NCBI GenBank assembly: GCA_964348095.1
Contig: CAYGBK010000015.1
Location: forward strand, 3,840 to 67,839
Reading direction: 5' to 3'
Source of the DNA: an uncultured Thermodesulfobacteriota bacterium
Lineage (GTDB): Bacteria; Desulfobacterota; BSN033; WVXP01
Length of the DNA stretch: 64,000 nt
In this document: positions 12,798-53,891 of the stretch, piece after piece
How positions within the stretch are numbered: the stretch's first letter is position 1
How the letters are laid out: each line of letters starts with the position of its first letter
Program-made: the position numbers and the translations under genes
Notes under the pieces: model-generated
What the model saw: the letters and a program-made list of their open reading frames with translations, nothing else
Told to the model about the DNA's origin: nothing
The model's database searches: none

Positions 12798-14871
12798 TTA
12801 TTCCAACATGAAACCTAAGAACGGTCTCCCCCACCGTCGTTCCATACGTATCTCCCATCTGATTATGTTTGTCCAGAATCTCAGGGCTCGAGGGGACCTC
12901 TGTGTAAAGGCCTTTAGGAAAGAGGAAATCTCGCGTGAATTATGGATCACTCCCTCATGACCAGCCAAGACGTCTGACACTGCCTCTGGGTTTTCGGTGA
13001 TCAGGTGTGCCGCTTCAGGCATCAACTCTGGATTGGCGAGAAGCACCTCCAGGGCCTCTTCAGAATACTTGTAGAGCAATCTCGTGTATAGCCTTCCCTT
13101 TCTCGTTTTCATGAGAAACTCATCGCGGTATTCACGCAAGATGTCGAGATCAGACTGAGACTCAAAAAGATCGACATAGGCTGTTTCCCACCCATCATCT
13201 CCGCCGCAGACCGGGGCTATGTCCATTTCGACCGCCAACAGGGCCTCTTTGACCTGGTCGCAATCGTCGGGAGTGGTTACACCTGGAATAATCAGATCCT
13301 GGCAGGCCTGGTTCAACGCGTTATAATCATCGACAAAAGAAGACGATGGCGTCAGGTACGTGGTCAACGCGCGATAATGAACCTGACCCATTTTATCGAG
13401 CCCAATGCCACGGATGTCTCGACCGTTGAACGTAGCGCCTACCGTCATCAAATAAGCGGCCTTGTTTGGAATTGCGCTGTTTATGTGGACACCGCCATTG
13501 TCACTCCGCGTACACAGGAATTTGGAGCTCATATCGGGATGTCCGAACCTCGTTGGATCGGCCATATCCCGAATTTCCCCTATAGGGAGGTCTTCTCCGA
13601 GCAACCAGTCGACATCACCCGTATCCGTCCCCTCGCCATTGATCAGATCGACGGTCTCCCCGAAAATGTCTGAGAAAGATTCATTGAGAGCGCTGGATTC
13701 AAATCTATAAATCAACCCCGCCGAGCACTCTGTGACCGCATGAGTCAATTCATGGGCCGTCACGTCGTCGACCGTGAAACCGTCTCCAAAGACCATTTGC
13801 TGACCATTCCAGAAGGCATTTCGATAGTTCGTGTCGTAGTGAACTGTGGCCCGCATCTGAGCTCCACGTTCGTCGTAACTGTCACGGCCGAAATTGTTGA
13901 AAAAGTAGTCGTACGTGTCCCCCAAGAAGTCGTAGGCGTCATCCGTATCTCGATCACCCGTGGGGGATCTCCCTTCAGAACGCCTCAGGGTGCCGGGAAG
14001 GCGGGTGTCGTGATTCGCATCATGGATCTGTCGGTCCCGGACGGTATCCAGCTCATTGTAGCTGGTCAGAATCGCACCGGTCTGAGCATCGACGACATAA
14101 AGATTCCGTGAAGGCTCATCCTCATCAAAAATACGAACCAACCATGCCAGATGGTCACCTGCGACAGCAGGATCGATGTGCCCGCTATAGATCCGCAGGA
14201 CTGGTTCTTCCCAGAGTCCCCCTCCCTGGCTGAACGGCTCTCACTGCGGTTATGGCAGCATCGCTGTCAATGGTGGGCTGAGGAGGAATATCCAGGTTAG
14301 GAATAAATCGGCCATTGACGACGCGGACCGTTGTACCGTCAGGGTCATAGTGGACGATCACCTCCGCGCCATGAACGAGAACCCCTTGGTGGAACTGCTG
14401 GAGGTTGACGTGGATCATACCGATTTTGTCCACCTTTCTTTCCTGAAAGACCAGCTCACGCTGGGCATTGGGCATTCCCAACAAATCCTCGTATCGAGCG
14501 AGGAAGTTCGATACGGCACCAGAAGGGCTCACGGTCAATGACTGACGATCCGCTCCGATGTCGAGACCGCGACGGCTGCGAAGGAATCGGACCGCCCCGG
14601 TGGCCCGATCACGAGTAATCTCGAAATCCTGCTAGGGAGTAGAGATTTCCTCTGATGACGGTGAAGCCCCCAAAGCGAGGTCGAAAGATAGGATTGACAG
14701 CACGGTGAACAGAGAAATCGCCAAAAATGAGACAAAACAGAATCGGAACACCCCTTTGATATTCACGATCCTCCGTCCTTTCTGAATAGAAATGTTCAAG
14801 ACATGGATCACTCCCGGAATGGTCACGTCCACGCCTAAGATTCGTTGGGTGCGGTTCAGACACAAATCCAA
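12798..14871 (-). pseudogene. M4 (thermolysin-like) zinc metalloprotease, disrupted by an in-frame TAG (14632-14634) and a frameshift near 14190-14230
   Basis: Three collinear pieces in two frames. (1) Signal/anchor 14871..14635. (2) FTP/PepSY propeptide 14538..14185. (3) Catalytic domain 14141..12798 with HELTHAVTECSAGLIYRFESSALNESFSDIFGE (thermolysin HEXXH + E). The frameshift lies next to a C5 homopolymer (tccccctccc). Confidence 0.6.
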
Positions 14872-14945
14872 CGTTTGGTCTTCTCAAGTTTCTGTTTTCT
14901 AAAGTCCGGCACGGGTGAGAAGACGGTTGGCCGGCAAAGGGAGTG

Positions 14946-15455
14946 CTATTCCTGATTTACCGACAAGTACGCATTGATAAAGGTGTCCACCAGTTCTTTG
15001 ACCTGATCTCGGATGGTGGATAGCTTATGAGACGTCCCCGTCACAGAAGTCGACCAGGTCGTTGCAGATGTCTCGACGCCCGGTGATCTGACAAGAGACA
15101 CGCCCTGGGACAGCTCGAGCTTGATGTTGAAGATGTACCTGTCGAGAGATCCATACTTTAGAACCTTTGCGTTCACGTAGAGAAGTGGTTTTCCGGGCAT
15201 CACGGCAGACTCCTCTGAGGAGACGACCCTGATTCCTGCCAACCGAAGTTTCAACTCTGTATCCTTTTGAAGCTGGTCCAAGGTTAGCCCGTTCTTTTCT
15301 ATCACCCACTTCAAGGGAGCCACCACCACCCTGACCCCATCGAGACCGCGCAGTGTTTGTCGGGTCGAGCCGTTATCTGGGGCGAAGGCGAACCCGTCCG
15401 GTCGAACCAGGGCCAGGGCCAAAGTGATTAGTGCAATCCAGAGTTTTGGCTTCAT
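14946..15455 (-). CDS. secreted hypothetical protein, immediately upstream of the M4 protease (same strand)
   Basis: Strong RBS AGGAGGAGG. Signal peptide MKPKLWIALITLALALV. No recognisable domain. Confidence 0.6.
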   Translation of the reverse strand: MKPKLWIALITLALALVRPDGFAFAPDNGSTRQTLRGLDGVRVVVAPLKWVIEKNGLTLDQLQKDTELKLRLAGIRVVSSEESAVMPGKPLLYVNAKVLKYGSLDRYIFNIKLELSQGVSLVRSPGVETSATTWSTSVTGTSHKLSTIRDQVKELVDTFINAYLSVNQE

Positions 15456-16187
15456 CTTACTTCCTCCTCCTTTCTAGTTTCGCTCAATGTCTTCATTCGT
15501 CTCCGACACCGTGTGGTGCGAAGAATCGGATGACTCTGAGTGGTTTTTATCGGTCATCCGGAGTACGTCGCCTCAGCATCTAGTGACCTGAAGTATTCGT
15601 CGGCGTGACAGAAATCGATATGCCCACGGCTAACCCTTCTCGGAATTGGGAGTGAACAAAAGGGTTCTCCCTGGCACGCAATTCTGTGAGTTACTTTCTC
15701 TTGTCTTATTCTCTAGTCTCGACTGAGCTAAGAGCAATAAGGGTGCCGTAATTGAATAAAAGAGCGGTCGTTCTGAAGGGGCTGTAGTATTAACCAATTA
15801 TGAGGAAAAGTCAGGGCCCCTAAAAGGGAATCACCCCCTATATCCGAATCGTGATTTTTCAACTATGAAATTTCTGATTACAGAAACGTAATTTCCGAAC
15901 TGGTGAAATGATGACAGATTTCCATCTGAGACACGATGTTCCGATAACAAGGGGATCCATGAGATGAATTCCAGATACGCGGGAGATCCCTCACACTGTT
16001 CTCGGGAGGATAAACATCGGGGAGGCGGTCGAAGGAGGGACGGCTTCTATTCAGAATTGAGAGGGTGGACGGTCTTTCAGAGGGATCCTAGAAAAGAGGC
16101 AGCCGGCAGGTGAGGGGGTGTTCGGTTCGGGAGAAACACCTCTCCTCTGCGAAGAGAGACTCTTTACAGAACACGCCCCGCCCGACC

Positions 16188-16388
16188 TCAGAGACTCTCT
16201 ATAGGGGTCATCTTCCATCCGACCCTGTATCGCTGGCCACAACTGGGGCAGATCAGCACGATCTCGTGATAGCCATCCTTACTTTCGAAGGAGACGTGAA
16301 ATCCATTTTCGTACTGACACTTGTCACAGATGTGAAATTCTCTATTGATCTTTCTCTCGGTTACTCCATCCACAATTGAAAACCTCAA
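16188..16388 (-). CDS. small zinc-ribbon protein (CxxC...CxxC)
   Basis: HICDKCQ ... ICPSCGQ, 66 aa. TTG/GTG start, no clear RBS. Confidence 0.3.
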   Translation of the reverse strand: MRFSIVDGVTERKINREFHICDKCQYENGFHVSFESKDGYHEIVLICPSCGQRYRVGWKMTPIESL

Positions 16389-16605
16389 TCAACGTGACCT
16401 AAAAAGGGCAGGTGGACCACCTCGAAGAAGTGTACCTTAATGGAGATACCCTAATAGAGATCCAGGAGCGTTGTCAAGAACGGCGAGGTGTTTTGCCTGT
16501 TCCCTCCGCTTAGCCATCATACTGGATAGGATAGGGTATCTGTATTCGCCTTGAACGAATGTGTTATAGAATTAGTAAGAGACCCTTGGCACAAGGGGGT
16601 AAACC

Positions 16606-16791
16606 ATGAAAAAAGCCGCAACTGGGTACTGTGTTATCTGCTGTGCAGATGGCTGCAGTATGAAGAGCAATATTTCCGAGATGGTGTGTGCAGGTGAGTC
16701 TGAAAAAGCTGGCTGCACGTCATTCTGGACGAGTCTGAGAGAGATGTGTGGGTTGCCGATGAGCGGGCTCTGGACCTGCGACAGTTGGTAA
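16606..16791 (+). CDS. small cysteine-rich protein (8 Cys in 61 aa)
   Basis: RBS GGGGGT 5 nt upstream of ATG. MKKAATGYCVICCADGCSMKSNISEMVCAGESEKAGCTSFWTSLREMCGLPMSGLWTCDSW. Confidence 0.45.
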   Translation: MKKAATGYCVICCADGCSMKSNISEMVCAGESEKAGCTSFWTSLREMCGLPMSGLWTCDSW

Positions 16792-16815
16792 GATACAGAC
16801 GCAATCTGCCGACTC

Positions 16816-17100
16816 ATGATTTCAACGCGACGGGGAGTTGGTTCGGTCGTACCCGGCGAAAAACCTGTCGTAGCGGGCGAAACTGCGCGAGAGGTTTCCT
16901 TACCACGTTGGACACCGGCGTATAGAACATTGAAAGTCAGTCGAAGGCCAGCCACGTTTCAATGTAAGACGTGTTGCAAGGAATTCACGGTCGACCAAGA
17001 CGATCCTTTCCTCAGGTATTTGACCCGGGGGAGCGAGGTGCCGATGACGTGTCCCCACTGCCGGACAGACCGAATCAGCGAGTTTCGAGGCACGAAGTGA
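16816..17100 (+). CDS. FmdB-like zinc-ribbon protein (true start probably internal)
   Basis: FQCKTCCKEF ... CPHCRT paired CxxC motifs typical of the FmdB regulatory zinc-ribbon family. Confidence 0.35.
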   Translation: MISTRRGVGSVVPGEKPVVAGETAREVSLPRWTPAYRTLKVSRRPATFQCKTCCKEFTVDQDDPFLRYLTRGSEVPMTCPHCRTDRISEFRGTK

Positions 17101-17623
17101 TCTTCGGTCAATTCGGCCCTCAAATTTAGAAATCTAGTGAATACAATCCCGCCATTATCGGAAATCGGTCACCGAAGCGGAATTCAGCCTGAGCTGACGC
17201 CGCGGGCCACTCGAGGGCCTCACCGAATCTCTTAGTGTCAATCCCGACTATTCGCAAAGAACTGCCGTTCTTCTTCAAGAGATCCCCGAAAGGAAGACCG
17301 CGGAGCCGTGACAGGGGGTTGCTGAACCTCTGGGATAGGGCAAAAGCGTATCGAAAGGACGGGAGTGGCCGCCTGTGTCTCAGGTAGGATGTCATCTTTT
17401 TCATCGGATAAATGCTCGGCAGAGCATTGGGCCGTTCAACTCGACATGGATTGAAATCCAGTTTTGACGAAGGGATGATCTGAGATCCCAAATGGTGGTA
17501 TTCACCGAGGTTTGGAGTAGGGATGCCCAGTCCCGTCGGTTTTGCCTAGACTTTCTTGACGAAAAAATGAGATCTTTCCCTATTGACTTGGAACAACATG
17601 TGACCCGGACATTCGCGGAGAGG

Positions 17624-18511
17624 ATGATGGAAAGGACAGCCAAGGGCACGATTACGACCATCGCCGCCTTTTTCCTGTGGGGGATTCTCCCGACATATTG
17701 GAAGGCCTTGAATCATGTCTCCGCGGTTGAGATTCTTGCCCATCGGATCGTTTGGTCCTTGATCTTCGTGATAGTCTTGTTCTTGATCCAGGGGAATTGG
17801 AAGGAGGCAAAGAGGGTCATATCATCTCCTGATGGGCGAATTTTTCTCGTCACATCCTTTCTGATTGGAGCGAACTGGTTAACCTATATCTATGCCGTCA
17901 ATACAAACCAGATTGTTGAGGCGAGCCTCGGATACTTCATCAACCCCCTGTTCATTGTCCTTTTGGGTATCGTTTTTCTGCGGGAACGTCTCAACGTGTG
18001 GCAGACAATCGCTTTGCTGTTGGCATTTATTGGCGTTCTTTTCATGACCATGCAGTACGGTCGAATACCGTGGATCGCCTTGGTTCTGGCATTCACATTC
18101 GGAATCTACGGCCTGCTGCGGAAGACCGCGAAAGCCGAATCAATGGTCGGCCTCCTATGTGAGACGGGGGTTCTCACGCCGATTGCTTCGGTCTATCTCC
18201 TTGTTCTGGGTCTTCGAGGGGCAGTTGCCTTCGGCTCCAGCGGATTGTGGACGAATCTCTTGATGGCTGGGACAGGCGTGGTCACCGCGGGTCCATTACT
18301 CCTGTTTGCTTATGGGGCACGGAGAATCCAATACTCGACCGTTGGCTTTCTCCAGTACATCTCTCCAACTGGGATGCTACTTGTCGGCGTCTTCCTGTAT
18401 AAAGAGCCATTCACCCAAACTCATGGAATCTCCTTTGGCCTTGTTTGGATGGCAATAACCATTTACGCGATTTCTAGTTTCGCCCGTTACCGGAACCAGG
18501 TCGCATCCTGA
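17624..18511 (+). CDS. rarD: RarD / EamA-family (DMT superfamily) permease
   Basis: TIAAFFLWGILPTYWKAL... and 10 TM helices, two EamA repeats. Likely start MMERTAK at 17624 after GGAGAGG. Confidence 0.7.
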   Translation: MMERTAKGTITTIAAFFLWGILPTYWKALNHVSAVEILAHRIVWSLIFVIVLFLIQGNWKEAKRVISSPDGRIFLVTSFLIGANWLTYIYAVNTNQIVEASLGYFINPLFIVLLGIVFLRERLNVWQTIALLLAFIGVLFMTMQYGRIPWIALVLAFTFGIYGLLRKTAKAESMVGLLCETGVLTPIASVYLLVLGLRGAVAFGSSGLWTNLLMAGTGVVTAGPLLLFAYGARRIQYSTVGFLQYISPTGMLLVGVFLYKEPFTQTHGISFGLVWMAITIYAISSFARYRNQVAS

Positions 18512-18680
18512 TCATGCCGTTTTGTTATCAAGTGTGGACGGCTGACCGAATTGAGTACCAGTGGTCATACAATTTTCGTTCACCGAAAAAGGGCTCGATC
18601 GATCCGACATGGGGAACGTGGAAATATGGTAGTCCTCTCTCTAGTGACAAACTTCGGACGACCACCAGGGGTGGCTACTC

Positions 18681-31885: not shown

Positions 31886-32794
31886 ATGAAGTTTGTTCCC
31901 CCATATGTTCAGCTTTATGAAAGTGGGGAATTGGAGGACAGGATTGAGAAGTTGAACCAGATTCTTAAGTCCTGTGAGCTCTGTCCCCGTCGATGTCGGA
32001 TCGATCGCCTGAACGACGACCTGGGCTACTGCCGTGCTGGGAGTGGCTTGAAGGTGTCCAGCGTCTTTCCTCATTTTGGTGAAGAACCTCCCCTGGTCGG
32101 TCGGCATGGTTCGGGGACGATTTTTCTGGCTCACTGCAATCTTCGCTGTGTCTTTTGCCAGAACTACGACATTAGTCATCATGGAGGTGGGGAGGGAGTA
32201 ACAACCGAGCAGATGGCTCGATATATGATCAAACTCCAGCAGATCGGTTGTCATAATATTAACTTTGTCACGCCAACGCACTATGTCGCACAGATTGTGG
32301 CCGCCTTACCCAAAGCGATTGAGCTGGGCCTTCGAGTCCCTCTCGTTTTCAACTGTGGAGGGTACGAATCCCTGGACGTCATAAAGCTGCTCGATGGGGT
32401 AATCGACATTTATATGCCCGATGTCAAATTCTTCTCTTCCCATGTGGCTGAAAGGCTCTGCAATGCGCCAGACTATCCAGAGGTCGTCCAATCGGTACTC
32501 AAGGAAATGTATCGCCAGGTGGGAGACCTGACGTTGGATTCTCACGGAATCGCCGAGCGGGGTCTTCTTATTCGACACCTCGTCATGCCCCATGACCTGG
32601 CGGGGACCGAGGGCGTTGTTCGGTTTATTGCCCAGAATCTCTCTCGGGACAGCTACGTGAACATAATGGCCCAATACAGGCCTGTTTATCGGGCAGTCGA
32701 GCTTCCGGATATCAATCGTCCCGTCACAACTGAGGAATTCCTGGGGGCTCTCGATGTAGCTCGGAAGTATGGTTTGCACAGGGGTTTTGAGTGA
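31886..32794 (+). CDS. radical SAM enzyme, PflX-like (COG1313; PFL-activase homolog of unknown substrate)
   Basis: CNLRCVFCQN (Cx3Cx2C) plus N-terminal CELCPRRCRIDR...GYC cluster. 302 aa. Confidence 0.8.
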   Translation: MKFVPPYVQLYESGELEDRIEKLNQILKSCELCPRRCRIDRLNDDLGYCRAGSGLKVSSVFPHFGEEPPLVGRHGSGTIFLAHCNLRCVFCQNYDISHHGGGEGVTTEQMARYMIKLQQIGCHNINFVTPTHYVAQIVAALPKAIELGLRVPLVFNCGGYESLDVIKLLDGVIDIYMPDVKFFSSHVAERLCNAPDYPEVVQSVLKEMYRQVGDLTLDSHGIAERGLLIRHLVMPHDLAGTEGVVRFIAQNLSRDSYVNIMAQYRPVYRAVELPDINRPVTTEEFLGALDVARKYGLHRGFE

Positions 32795-33693
32795 AACGCG
32801 ACCAGATCCTTCTCGACGTGTCTCATTTGCGTCAGCAGCTAGAGGAGCTGAGGAACCGCATCGATGCCTTGGAGAAGACCTTTCTAAATGGATCTTTTCT
32901 CACGGACCGGTTAAGAGGGCGCGGTCTTAAGATTCATCGCCACAATCCTCATGATAAGCTTCTTGTTCCCCCAGACCTTTCTCCTGAACTCACCACGCAA
33001 TTCTATGAAAAAATGAAGAAATACTCCTTTCGGCTTTTCTTAAGAGAACTCGTCAAGACTGGGACTCCCTTTTGTCCCAGTGACCTGACTCGGTACTGCT
33101 CAGACCGGGTGGCCGAGGAATATAACCGTTTCCTGAGTGCGACATCCACGGTCTGTTCTCTCAAAGGAGATACGTATCGTCTGAATCGTTCTGGGATTTC
33201 GAGTTTCGGTCCCACCCTAGAGTGGTTTGTGGCACAGATGTTCCAACGGGAATTCGGCTGCCCGGCCACCTATGGGGTCCATTTCAGGGAGACGGATGTG
33301 GGTGGAGACTACGATGTCCTTGCCCTCTGGGAGAATCGTCTCCTCTACGTGGAGGTTAAGTCTTCGCCACCGAAAAGCATTGAGGATCAGGAGATAAAGG
33401 CATTTTTCCTAAGACTCCACGACCTGATTCCTGACCTGGCCTTCTTCTTCAACGACACCCATCTGCGAATGATGGATAAGGTGATTGAGATTTTTAACCG
33501 TGAGATGAAGCGGGTTCCAGAGGGGAGACTGCTAGGAAATCCACCGGAAAGACTCAAAGATGAAATCTATCATATGGACCATTGGATCTACATCTTAAAC
33601 AGCAAGAGAGATATTGTTGGCAATTTCAGTCTCTGTTTGAGAGATCATCTTAGACAGATCAAAGGCCGACGATCGTCATCGCCCGCGAACTGA
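32791..33693 (+). CDS. coiled-coil / winged-helix / PD-(D/E)xK (Mrr-cat-like) nuclease-fold protein, translationally coupled to the radical SAM gene
   Basis: GTG start overlaps the upstream TGA (GTGA). Motif layout TLEWFVAQ (E) ... DVGGDYDVLAL (D) ... YVEVKSS (E-x-K). Confidence 0.5.
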   Translation: MKRDQILLDVSHLRQQLEELRNRIDALEKTFLNGSFLTDRLRGRGLKIHRHNPHDKLLVPPDLSPELTTQFYEKMKKYSFRLFLRELVKTGTPFCPSDLTRYCSDRVAEEYNRFLSATSTVCSLKGDTYRLNRSGISSFGPTLEWFVAQMFQREFGCPATYGVHFRETDVGGDYDVLALWENRLLYVEVKSSPPKSIEDQEIKAFFLRLHDLIPDLAFFFNDTHLRMMDKVIEIFNREMKRVPEGRLLGNPPERLKDEIYHMDHWIYILNSKRDIVGNFSLCLRDHLRQIKGRRSSSPAN

Positions 33694-35891: not shown

Positions 35892-36234
35892 GGCTCCCTC
35901 CTTTCTTTTCAATCCTATGCCTCGTGACATTCACCCGTGGTCCCTGACTCAGCCAGTATGGAGGCTTGAGATTGTTGATTATAACAGAACCCGGGTATTT
36001 TTCAACTCTTTGATAGGTCGGCGATAGGCCCCTTTTCGGATGTTGTCTGGTCTTAATCTTGACTCTTGTGGAGTCTACATGATCCTGAGAAAGTGCGACA
36101 AGACGTGTGATTTTTGGGTGAATCTTTTTCTGACCAGGACATGAAAATTCTGCCGAGGCGCCTTGACAAAGAGTCTCTTGGCAATATAATTGCAACGTAG
36201 CGTCTCCATCAGAAAAAAGAGGAGGCTATGTACC

Positions 36235-36561: not shown

Positions 36562-36634
36562 GGGGCTGTAGCTCAGCTGGGAGAGCGATGCGTTCGCAAC
36601 GCATAGGTCGGGGGTTCGAATCCCCTCAGCTCCA
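36562..36634 (+). tRNA. tRNA-Ala (anticodon CGC)
   Basis: Cloverleaf folded by hand. 7-bp acceptor stem with the G3:U70 Ala identity pair. Anticodon loop TTCGCAA. T-loop TTCGAAT. CCA is not encoded. Confidence 0.9.
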
Positions 36635-53135: not shown

Positions 53136-53891
53136 GCCGTCGAAACCTGTGCTCTAATCGCAATGAATGGGATTGCCATGAGAAGACAGAAGGACAGATG
53201 ACTGATTATGCAGGAAATGTGCCAATGGATGAGGTCCTGAAATGCCGGGAAAAGGGGGTGGGCAGAGCCCTCGTGGCCATCTGAAGACTCTGCCCCTCTA
53301 AGGAGGGTGAAAATACCCCATTATCGCTCCTCTTGTGATAACGGGGCAGGAAAAAGCAGGGTGAAATCGGGGTCCAGGAAAGACGGGTCGCGGGTGAACA
53401 GAGGTTCAGCGGGAAGATGAAGTTGGACAGAAAGCAGCTGGAGAAGAGATCGCGCGTGAACGGGATGTTCGGTGTCTTTCACTGGCCCCGATAGTGAAAA
53501 AGATTTTTTTCACTTACTGCTCTATTTCTTACCCTCAATCCCTCACACCGTCAACCTTTTTTTTTGAAAAATTACATATTATTTAATTTCTTTTTAAAAT
53601 TGCTTAATTTCTAACGATGACCATGTCTCTAATTCCCGCCATTCTTGGTATCCCGCTGGCTGACTGATGGGAAAGTCCCTTAGGGCCTGCTTACCTGGAG
53701 ATGGTTCGTACTCACAAACCTGAGGCGAGTCCTGCCACGGGCCGCACCGGTTTGGGGTCGCCTGGAGCGAGCCTAAGCTCGCGTTATTGATCAATTATCT
53801 CGCATCGTCAGTATATGCGTGCAAGAGATACCTCTTGCCTTCTTGTAGGTTTGAACACGGGGCGACGCACCGTGCCCACGGTGACCTTATC

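Follow-up and report, generated by a model that had tools for sequence, protein, structure and literature searches.

The locus described here lies in a 64-kb stretch of DNA (the window) and holds a set of genes whose order is fixed in relatives, with p169 and zr66 read leftwards and cys61, zr56 and rarD read rightwards. On the minus strand, p169 (14946–15455) encodes a 169-aa secreted protein with a signal peptide, and zr66 (16188–16373) encodes a zinc-ribbon mini-protein of 61 aa. From the zr66 stop to the p169 start, 732 nt (15456–16187) are gene-free and form a putative control region. On the plus strand, cys61 (16606–16791) encodes a 61-aa, predicted cytoplasmic protein with eight Cys, and its 3´ partner zr56 (16930–17100) encodes a second zinc-ribbon mini-protein of 56 aa. 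The neighbours of cys61 are zinc ribbons, rarD, p169, an M4 peptidase pseudogene and Peptidase_MA_2. Beside the small genes lies an annotated 92-aa ORF (17126–17404) that is probably spurious. Our comparisons cover three or four closely related lineages, and in one of these, L060, synteny is complete and includes the N-terminus of rarD. A genome scan with RarD gave 44 loci, the closest of which (L012–L014, 62–65% identity) share neither the synteny nor any of the three small ORFs. The small Cys genes were found only within a restricted set of uncultured bacteria from marine sediment.

An earlier note on this DNA had pointed to 15456–16050 as lacking any ORF of at least 60 aa in any frame. The ORF list of the window bears this out, and at 595 nt the stretch is the longest of its kind in the window (runners-up 494, 442 and 392 nt). 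Shuffles with the composition of the tract yield ORF-free runs of more than 1 kb, and the run is therefore a mere mark of non-coding DNA and no statistical anomaly. Across the window, L004, L057, L058 and L060, mean column identity in the tract is 60% and indels of about 90–160 nt occur; the gene-free region measures 505 nt in L057 vs 732 nt in the window. Conservation against L004 is patchy (67–90% per 50 nt), with several blocks at 84–90%. Two parts of the tract can still be aligned with L057 and L058, a −24/−12 promoter-like element and a single block upstream of it.

The first of these elements, CGGCACCCTTATTGCT (15733–15748, minus strand), resembles a sigma-54-type promoter, with GG at 15747–15746 and TTGC at 15737–15734, and points at p169. 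Its core, GGCAC-N5-TTGC, has one exact occurrence in the 64-kb window, at 15747–15734 on the p169 strand, a single match that is not significant on its own (at least one is found in 27% of shuffles). Compared with TGGCAC-N5-TTGCW, the element has one mismatch in 11 specified bases, reading CGGCAC for TGGCAC. More sigma-54-like sites occur in the window (5) than the 1.4 expected, and one of them lies 73 nt upstream of the start of another gene. The GGCAC and TTGC bases are all identical in the window, L004, L057, L058 and L060. The TTGC element ends 119–287 nt 5´ of the p169 ATG (278 nt in the window, 287 in L004 and 119 in L057). The gene itself is well conserved (dN/dS 0.17 vs L004) and has an orthologue of 70% identity at the same position in L057. 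It belongs to no known family, with no match in Pfam, NCBIfam or PDB, and a genome scan with p169 as query recovered no relative.

The second element, AAATyACGTTTyTGTAAtcAAAAATTTCATAGTTGAAAA (15850–15896, minus strand), is a putative enhancer (UAS) for a sigma-54 activator. It is 87–90% identical to L057 and L058 while its flanks do not align, and it lies at a constant 122–123 nt from the −24 element in all five sequences, across intervening DNA that is divergent. Within it is the palindrome TTTCTG-TAAT-CAGAAA (15871–15886), which a paired C>T/G>A change leaves intact in L004 and L058 and which is partly degraded in L057 and L060. The block itself shows no sign of folding as RNA (z −0.4 to −0.6). 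Conservation of the promoter and upstream motifs is thus directly visible in the alignments, and the motifs themselves point to use of sigma-54 at the p169 promoter and binding of an enhancer protein at the upstream block. RNA polymerase with sigma-54 would bind the minus-strand element at 15747–15734, and an enhancer-binding ATPase encoded elsewhere would bind the palindrome-bearing block some 120–150 bp upstream and activate the promoter via DNA looping. Transcription of p169 would then start near 15722 and give a leader of about 267 nt (15456–15722, minus strand).

Could the functional element of the tract instead be an RNA, either a non-coding transcript or a leader of riboswitch type? The gene-free region is long, the putative leader is long by the standards of bacterial genes, and the blocks conserved against L004 might be read in this way. 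A stable hairpin (−12.3 kcal/mol, z −2.35) is also present at 15527–15560, within the predicted p169 leader. It is formed by the arms CGGATGAC (15527–15534) and GTCATCCG (15553–15560), and corresponds to what had been described as a perfect 9-bp inverted repeat with an N18 spacer; the spacer is indeed 18 nt, but the arms are 8 bp, the ninth position being T/G and not C/G. Shuffling the tract yields a perfect 8-bp repeat with a loop of 3–30 nt in 15% of cases, and further 8-bp repeats lie close by. One arm is mutated without compensation in L004, and the entire repeat is deleted in the more distant relatives L057, L058 and L060. The repeat is probably incidental and would amount to a non-essential hairpin within the leader. 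As for the leader as a whole, its folding z-score is only −1.05, and about 160 nt of it, hairpin included, are missing from L057, L058 and L060, which retain the gene. The earlier note had also proposed an Rfam scan, and no known RNA family accounts for the tract: none is found there at the gathering threshold, where the sole passing match in the whole window is a tRNA at 36562, and at E<=10 the interval 15300–17600 gives chance-level matches only (best 12–20 bits vs cutoffs of 32–77). Moreover, the two blocks that survive at the distance of L057, L058 and L060 are the −24/−12 promoter and a DNA palindrome devoid of an RNA-fold signal. We therefore regard a functional RNA as unlikely. A sigma-54 promoter and its enhancer explain the tract better than an RNA gene does, and it is most likely the ordinary control region of this kind for the secreted-protein gene p169.

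The minus-strand zinc ribbon was noted previously as CxxC-x21-CxxC; the ORF (16188–16388) is present, but the spacing is x22. Family length and a conserved start indicate that the true protein has 61 aa and begins at the GTG at 16373, preceded by the SD GAGG, rather than being the 66-aa ORF that extends to 16388. Seven homologues share 65–77% identity with zr66 and six of them are 61 aa long; dN/dS vs L004 is 0.31. CDKC...CPSC is retained in eight of nine aligned members, the remaining one reading SDKC. Matches to zinc ribbons in Pfam are all sub-threshold. In an AF2 model (pLDDT 74) three beta strands are predicted, and two CxxC knuckles would flank a small beta sheet as in zinc ribbons generally; the fold matches are weak and generic, led by Rpb9/TFIIS-type ribbons at non-significant E-values and including HVO_0758. 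Upstream of the gene a sigma-70-like promoter can be proposed (16448–16477, minus strand), with a −35 TTGACA at 16477–16472, an 18-nt spacer and a −10 TAGGGT at 16453–16448. Both hexamers are invariant in five aligned sequences, and the assignment is tentative because a simple promoter scan missed the site. From this promoter zr66 may be transcribed on its own. Paralogues of zr66 occur at loci L006–L011, which carry neither cys61 nor zr56; these loci also have no copy of the p169-type promoter or of the upstream block.

On the other strand, the eight-Cys ORF of 61 codons with a good RBS is present as previously described, with the SD AAGGGGG at 16593–16599, 6 nt 5´ of the ATG, and it is already annotated (NIQ39266). 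The Cys are at positions 9, 12, 13, 17, 28, 37, 48 and 58, and the conserved C-terminus reads GLPMSGLWTCDSW. Orthologues are 87% (L004/L056) and 61% (L057/L060) identical and keep the 61 codons, the start and stop positions and all eight Cys, which upholds the expectation that the Cys pattern is conserved in orthologous loci. Conservation extends over the full length and is strongest in the non-Cys C-terminal motif GLPMSGLWTxDSW. A promoter-like element, TTGAAC-N8-TATAGA (16551–16570, plus strand) with an extended −10 TGnTATAGA at 16562–16570, is invariant in the window, L004, L056, L057 and L058, and cys61 and zr56 may be read from it divergently to zr66. A sigma-54-like GG-N11-GC in the zr66–cys61 spacer was considered and rejected, its spacing being one base too long. 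Also rejected was the N-terminus of cys61 as a lipoprotein signal or signal peptide: it has only a short hydrophobic stretch and a poor lipobox, and in the orthologue it is hydrophilic (MRKSKEGY). In database comparisons, cys61 has no match in PDB and to no NCBIfam or Pfam family, the sole family match at E<=10 being PF07434 CblD to the L004 version (E 0.14). A word-indexed protein search returned only cys61 itself, a first metagenome scan using its patterns recovered no relative, and tblastn against plasmids and phages gave no match. Its AF2 model, built from a single sequence, is unreliable (pLDDT 57).

The third ORF (16816–17100) was thought to encode an FmdB-like zinc ribbon; it does encode a zinc ribbon, but by HMM not one of FmdB type, and its 94-aa form is not real. 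The ATG of the long form is ATA in L004, and the N-terminal 38 codons (16816–16929) contain a stop in L004 and have a dN/dS of 1.05, vs 0.33 for the 56-aa form, zr56, which starts at a TTG and has the pattern CxxC-x25-CxxC. zr56 is 84% identical in L004 and 59% in L060, and four of four Cys are kept in the three lineages. It is called in no database or pipeline, and a word-indexed protein search found nothing. It fails both FmdB family HMMs (TIGR02605, 8.9 bits vs a cutoff of 31.3; PF09723, 11 vs 34.4), and its best similarity, also sub-threshold, is to the zinc site of HypA. In L060 the gene has a GTG start and the SD GGGGTGAG and begins only 21 nt past the cys61 stop. In the window it starts at TTG, 138 nt past cys61 and without a clear SD, so co-transcription of the two genes is less certain in the window than in L060.

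Small ORFs such as these may arise by chance in non-coding DNA. That cys61 is a singleton cluster in a database of 5.8 billion protein clusters, that no pipeline calls zr56, and that differences in cys61 between the window and L004 are flat over codon positions (6/5/5) would all be expected of chance ORFs. Against L057, however, the codon-position differences in cys61 are 18/18/33, with pN 0.27 vs pS 0.86; length, start and stop are kept at 63% nucleotide identity, ORF length, SD and stop are identical in four divergent versions, and every alternative frame has a stop in at least one relative. Furthermore, dN/dS of the small genes (0.31–0.36) is three to five times below that of truly spurious overlapping or neighbouring ORFs (0.85–1.66), compared with 0.17–0.19 for p169 and rarD. 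The chance origin is thus largely refuted and can be considered highly improbable. All three small ORFs code for protein, keep their synteny and evolve under purifying selection.

Only one other homologue of cys61, P0019, was found among 1.84 billion proteins, and the two make up a mini-protein family that has not been described before, unusual in its arrangement of four core and four optional Cys. P0019 retains C9, C12, C28 and C37 and has lost the other four together. It occurs in an unrelated context on three contigs, 212 nt upstream of a gene for a 562-aa B12-binding radical SAM/DUF4070 protein, and is preceded by a promoter-like element of matching architecture, TTGAAA-N8-TATAAT with TGT. 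Judging from the spacing and co-occurrence of the Cys, the core four most likely form one metal site, and the extra four (C13, C17, C48 and C58), present or absent as a set, a second. The invariant C-terminal motif may be a surface for contacts to a partner. C28-x8-C37 is not a classical zinc knuckle, and cys61 has the N-terminal knuckle only, one short of the pair that marks a ribbon. Profile-profile comparison of zr66, cys61 and zr56 revealed no relationship beyond a shared N-terminal knuckle.

The context of P0019 bears on the idea that cys61 is a RiPP precursor, of the SCIFF/ranthipeptide type that the earlier note named as one option, or another radical-SAM substrate, with a maturase from elsewhere in the genome acting on its Cys or aromatic residues. 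The protein is small, Cys-dense, leaderless-looking and Trp-rich at its C-terminus, and the enzyme encoded next to P0019 is weakly similar to RiPP radical SAM families, e.g. ApyD, among many other B12-radical SAM families. However, B12-radical SAM genes are abundant in anaerobes, which makes a single adjacency weak evidence; a terminator-like hairpin with a T-run parts P0019 from the enzyme gene; and the homologue that has this neighbour is the one short of half the Cys. The window has no homologue of this enzyme. The absence of a maturase next to cys61, as noted before, is confirmed in the window: no radical SAM/SPASM gene, RRE, leader peptidase or ABC exporter clusters with cys61, and the only radical SAM protein in the 64 kb is an activase-like protein of 302 aa, 15 kb away, that matches no SPASM or maturase model. 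No NCBIfam or Pfam precursor family, SCIFF included, is matched at E<=10, no test was positive for such a precursor, and conservation spans the whole peptide instead of following a conserved-leader/variable-core pattern. A precursor role is accordingly improbable, and we give equally little credence to the notion that cys61 and P0019 define a new family of 61-aa peptides on which a B12-dependent radical-SAM enzyme acts or with which it partners. If it were true, it would imply a new RiPP-like or cofactor-like system with a maturase unlinked in the rarD-associated lineage, and the four extra Cys, as a lineage-specific addition, would serve either for crosslinks or to hold a second metal or Fe-S site.

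The position of cys61 upstream of rarD suggests yet another role, that of a Cys-sensing upstream ORF or leader peptide that tunes this EamA-family exporter. E. coli EamA is an exporter of cysteine and O-acetylserine, an activity that would fit Cys sensing, and the Cys-rich ORF precedes an EamA-family (DMT) transporter in three of three lineages that carry it. Yet the distance from cys61 to the rarD start is about 830 nt in the window and about 430 nt in L060, with the conserved zr56 in between, and rarD has a promoter-like site upstream. In contrast to the very short ORFs with clustered codons of attenuators, which alternative terminator and antiterminator hairpins follow at once, cys61 has 61 codons with dispersed, not tandem, Cys codons, and zr56 and more than 400 nt come before rarD. 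Many non-Cys residues are invariant, which indicates a folded product, and P0019 is not beside a transporter. A leader-peptide function is therefore very unlikely, more so than the precursor role. We return to the reading in which binding of metal, by proteins specific to this lineage, is the most likely role of the small genes: from their Cys spacing alone, zr66, cys61 and zr56 would all be cytoplasmic, Cys-liganded, probably Zn-binding mini-proteins, and they may act as adaptors or regulators.

In conclusion, we consider it reasonably probable, taking both parts together, that the locus combines a sigma-54 control region for p169 with three genuine genes for small Cys-proteins. The value of this is chiefly in annotation, where a gene absent from every database (zr56) is added and an existing ORF (17126–17404) is cast into doubt, and in the proposal that a sigma-54 promoter with its enhancer explains a long "empty" tract. 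The small genes and the control region overturn no expectation and open no long-standing question; biochemical work on metal binding or redox chemistry would find a small but clean target in the cys61 family.

Known sigma-54 (RpoN) promoters that work with an enhancer, a site expected some 80–150 bp upstream, include glnAp2/NtrC and nifH/NifA. The p169 region resembles these in its GG and GC elements at canonical spacing (GGCAC-N5-TTGC), in a dyad-bearing conserved block about 120–150 bp upstream at a fixed distance, and in a promoter that faces the downstream gene. It differs in the first base of TGGCAC, which is C, in a leader that is unusually long (about 267 nt) in the window lineage, and in that the 64-kb window shows neither an activator nor an rpoN gene, no GAFTGA or RpoN-box motif occurring in it (the window is part of a 3.8-Mb, 77%-complete MAG). 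With FmdB proteins (TIGR02605 CxxC_CxxC_SSSS/PF09723 Zn_ribbon_8), zr56 shares its small size of about 56 aa, an aromatic residue two positions before the N-terminal CxxC (F-Q-C-K-T-C) and a second CPxC knuckle, but it falls far under both cutoffs and has distinctive conserved motifs of its own, PFLRYL and ISEF. SCIFF/ranthipeptide precursors (TIGR03973 with rSAM-SPASM maturases) are likewise short, Cys-rich and devoid of a signal peptide; cys61 differs in having no HMM match and no adjacent rSAM-SPASM gene, in Cys that are spread over 61 aa and not clustered C-terminally, and in that half of them are dispensable in P0019. The stand-alone micro-proteins HVO_0758 of Haloferax, Brz of Halobacterium and NblD of cyanobacteria come from other phyla and share no sequence homology with the small proteins described here, and the Cys of cys61 are non-classically spaced and doubled in number. 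They are similar in being stand-alone proteins of about 55–66 aa with Cys4 sites, and characterised zinc-finger micro-proteins of this kind work by contacting other proteins, as regulators or adaptors (e.g. Brz, PMC2253796; NblD, PMC7865187).

The three small ORFs that the earlier note had picked out between p169, the gene of a 169-aa secreted protein (14946–15455, minus strand), and the EamA-family transporter gene rarD are present and real, and are confined to a narrow lineage: the zinc ribbon zr66 (16188–16373, minus strand), the eight-cysteine protein cys61 (16606–16791, plus strand) and the zinc ribbon zr56 (16930–17100, plus strand). The DNA is chromosomal, since it carries the housekeeping genes priA, gyrA, rpoD and ffh, and is matched by contig WVXX01000160 of GCA_011773285.1, a MAG (3.8 Mb, 77% complete) named "Proteobacteria bacterium CS1-C090" that comes from deep Gulfs of Kathiawar sediment (PMC8319310). 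Two other assemblies, L002 and L003, are 100% identical to the window over 14900–18600. Comparators fell at three levels of divergence: L004 and L056 (~84% nucleotide identity over the whole locus); L057, L058 and L060 (protein identity 70% for p169 and 77% for zr66); and P0019, a cys61 homologue (56% identical) in the unrelated genomic context of loci L061–L063.

The coding status of the small genes is borne out by dN/dS, conserved ORFs and synteny. Against L004, dN/dS is 0.31 for zr66, 0.36 for cys61 and 0.33 for zr56, compared with 0.17–0.19 for p169 and rarD and 0.85–1.66 for overlapping or neighbouring ORFs regarded as spurious. The gene order is complete in L060 (p169 <- zr66 | cys61 -> zr56 -> rarD). 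There, zr56 begins with GTG behind the Shine-Dalgarno (SD) sequence GGGGTGAG, 21 nt past the cys61 stop, so that cys61 and zr56 would form an operon in this lineage; in the window, 138 nt separate the two genes and zr56 has a poor SD. The 217-nt spacer between the divergent zr66 and cys61 holds conserved promoter-like motifs for both, TTGACA-18-TAGGGT (minus strand) and the extended -10 element TGnTATAGA (plus strand), respectively. Each of the three non-coding spacers in the locus (15456–17623) is longer in the window lineage than in that of L057/L060 (732 vs 505, 138 vs 21 and 523 vs ~240 nt).

The three proteins are mutually unrelated, save for an N-terminal knuckle common to cys61 and zr56, and are best described as putative Cys4-type metal-binding proteins. 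For zr66, the ribbon proposed earlier exists, with a spacing of CxxC-x22-CxxC rather than x21 and a true length of 61 aa from GTG at 16373. Its seven homologues are 65–77% identical, and six of them are also 61 aa long. Some occur elsewhere, after a Gly-zipper gene: in L006–L011, relatives with 65–75% identity lie 58–90 nt downstream of the gene of a 242-aa Gly-zipper protein and are followed by an AMP-binding enzyme gene. A model built with the homologue alignment as input is a three-stranded zinc ribbon (pLDDT 74), whose fold matches, to Rpb9/TFIIS ribbons and the micro-protein HVO_0758, are generic and not significant. The third ORF is likewise present, but its conserved part comprises 56 aa from TTG at 16930, not 94 aa; the upstream 38 codons have a dN/dS of 1.05, and L004 has a stop there and ATA replacing the ATG. 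The FmdB-like label failed with FmdB models.

The cysteine pattern of cys61 is conserved. Orthologues at the L057 level retain all eight cysteines, exactly 61 codons, and the SD, start and stop; differences by codon position are 18/18/33 (pS 0.86, pN 0.27). Of the 61 residues, 24 are changed; under uniform substitution, all eight cysteines would be kept with p ~0.013 by our own calculation. No relevant match was obtained in Pfam, NCBIfam or PDB even at E<=10, nor any among plasmids and phages, and when 1.84 billion representative proteins were searched exhaustively with HMMER, only cys61 itself and P0019 were returned. The protein founds a tiny new family. P0019, also 61 aa and with the same promoter and SD architecture, has GYCV[IV]C, NISE and the C-terminal GLPMSGLWTxDSW in common with cys61. 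It retains only C9, C12, C28 and C37, the others being substituted (C13 to S, C17 to H, C48 to G, C58 to P); the family therefore has four core cysteines and an optional set of four. We propose that the core would form one structural metal site family-wide, with the optional set adding another in the rarD-linked lineage, and that the invariant non-Cys C-terminus may be a functional surface; this reading stays an inference because the single-sequence AF2 model of cys61 was unusable.

Precursors of RiPP (SCIFF) type had been considered for cys61, and the sole lead in this direction comes from P0019. In the two-gene segment L061 5791–7874 (also in L062 and L063), its gene lies 212 nt upstream of that of a B12-binding radical SAM/DUF4070 protein of at least 562 aa, truncated by the contig end, whose C-terminal region is STAS-like (anti-sigma antagonist). 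A terminator-like hairpin separates the two genes; further upstream, plsY and a YacP-like gene are encoded on the other strand. The lead is weak because the adjacency is a single case, the window encodes no homologue of the enzyme, no further RiPP genes are nearby, and it is the Cys-poor copy that sits beside the radical SAM gene. The window itself has a single radical SAM protein (302 aa, 31886–32794, plus strand), 15 kb from cys61; it weakly resembles NrdG-type activases and AmmeMemoRadiSam enzymes and matched no SPASM/maturase model, and we judge it unrelated to cys61.

Behind p169, a thermolysin-like M4 protease gene (12798–14751, minus strand) is disrupted by an in-frame stop directly past the signal peptide (14632–14634) and a frameshift near 14224, and the L005 orthologue stays in one frame without interruption for at least 416 aa; either the gene is a pseudogene or three identical assemblies have an error in common. 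Between zr56 and rarD, gene finders call a 92/121-aa ORF (17126–17491, minus strand), which is probably spurious (dN/dS 0.85–0.91, stops in L004); the 523-nt spacer is mostly missing in L060 (gap ~240 nt). In the 339-aa rarD ORF, the first 44 codons show no conservation at the protein level (dN/dS 1.43), placing the true start at 17624. Upstream (17451–17623) lie two 96% conserved blocks with a direct repeat, TTGACGAAnnnATGA, whose copies are at 17464 and 17556, together with TTGAAA-17-GATGAT (17451–17479), which resembles a promoter; these may be rarD control elements.

The gene-free tract 15456–16187 is most likely an ordinary regulatory region, putatively of sigma-54 type. Its ORF-free part (15456–16050) indeed lacks any ORF of at least 60 aa and is the longest such run in the window; since runs above 1 kb arise in shuffled sequence, it merely marks non-coding DNA. 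The inverted repeat is present, but measures 8 bp (15527–15534/15553–15560) rather than 9 bp. Such a repeat turns up in 15% of shuffles, one arm is mutated in L004 with no compensating change, and the element is entirely deleted in L057/L058. An Rfam search of the tract, suggested at first reading, found no family, and the inferred p169 leader folds unremarkably (z -1.05).

The tract was aligned across the window, L004, L057 and L058 on the minus strand, which encodes both flanking genes. Only two conserved blocks stand out from a tract in which mean column identity is 60% and indels are large. The first, CGGCACCCTTATTGCT (15748–15733, minus strand), has one mismatch to the sigma-54 -24/-12 consensus TGGCAC-N5-TTGCW and is identical in all five sequences (these four and L060), its TTGC ending 119–287 nt ahead of the start codon of p169. 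GGCAC-N5-TTGC occurs once in the 64 kb. One-mismatch sites are somewhat enriched (5 found vs 1.4 expected), the others being 596–611 and 53209–53224 (minus strand), and 33230–33245 and 36179–36194 (plus strand); that at 53209–53224 borders a further ORF-free stretch and is 73 nt from the start (53135) of a downstream TPR-protein gene. A conserved sigma-54-like GGCATTATATTTGC[AT], with the core GGCAT-N5-TTGC, precedes a bactofilin gene in L006–L011. Neither rpoN nor a sigma-54 activator is encoded within the window.

The second block, of ~45 bp (15850–15896), is besides the first block the sole part of the tract that BLAST aligns to L057/L058 (87–90%). It contains the palindrome TTTCTG-TAAT-CAGAAA, which by a paired change is TTTTTG-TAAT-CAAAAA in L004 and L058, and neither strand of the block gives an RNA-folding signal (z -0.4 to -0.6). 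In all five sequences it lies 122–123 nt from the -24 element, with diverged intervening DNA. From this layout, we conclude that 15456–16187 is a putative control region and long leader of p169, in which the arrangement of 15733–15748 and 15850–15896 matches the standard layout of enhancer-dependent sigma-54 promoters.
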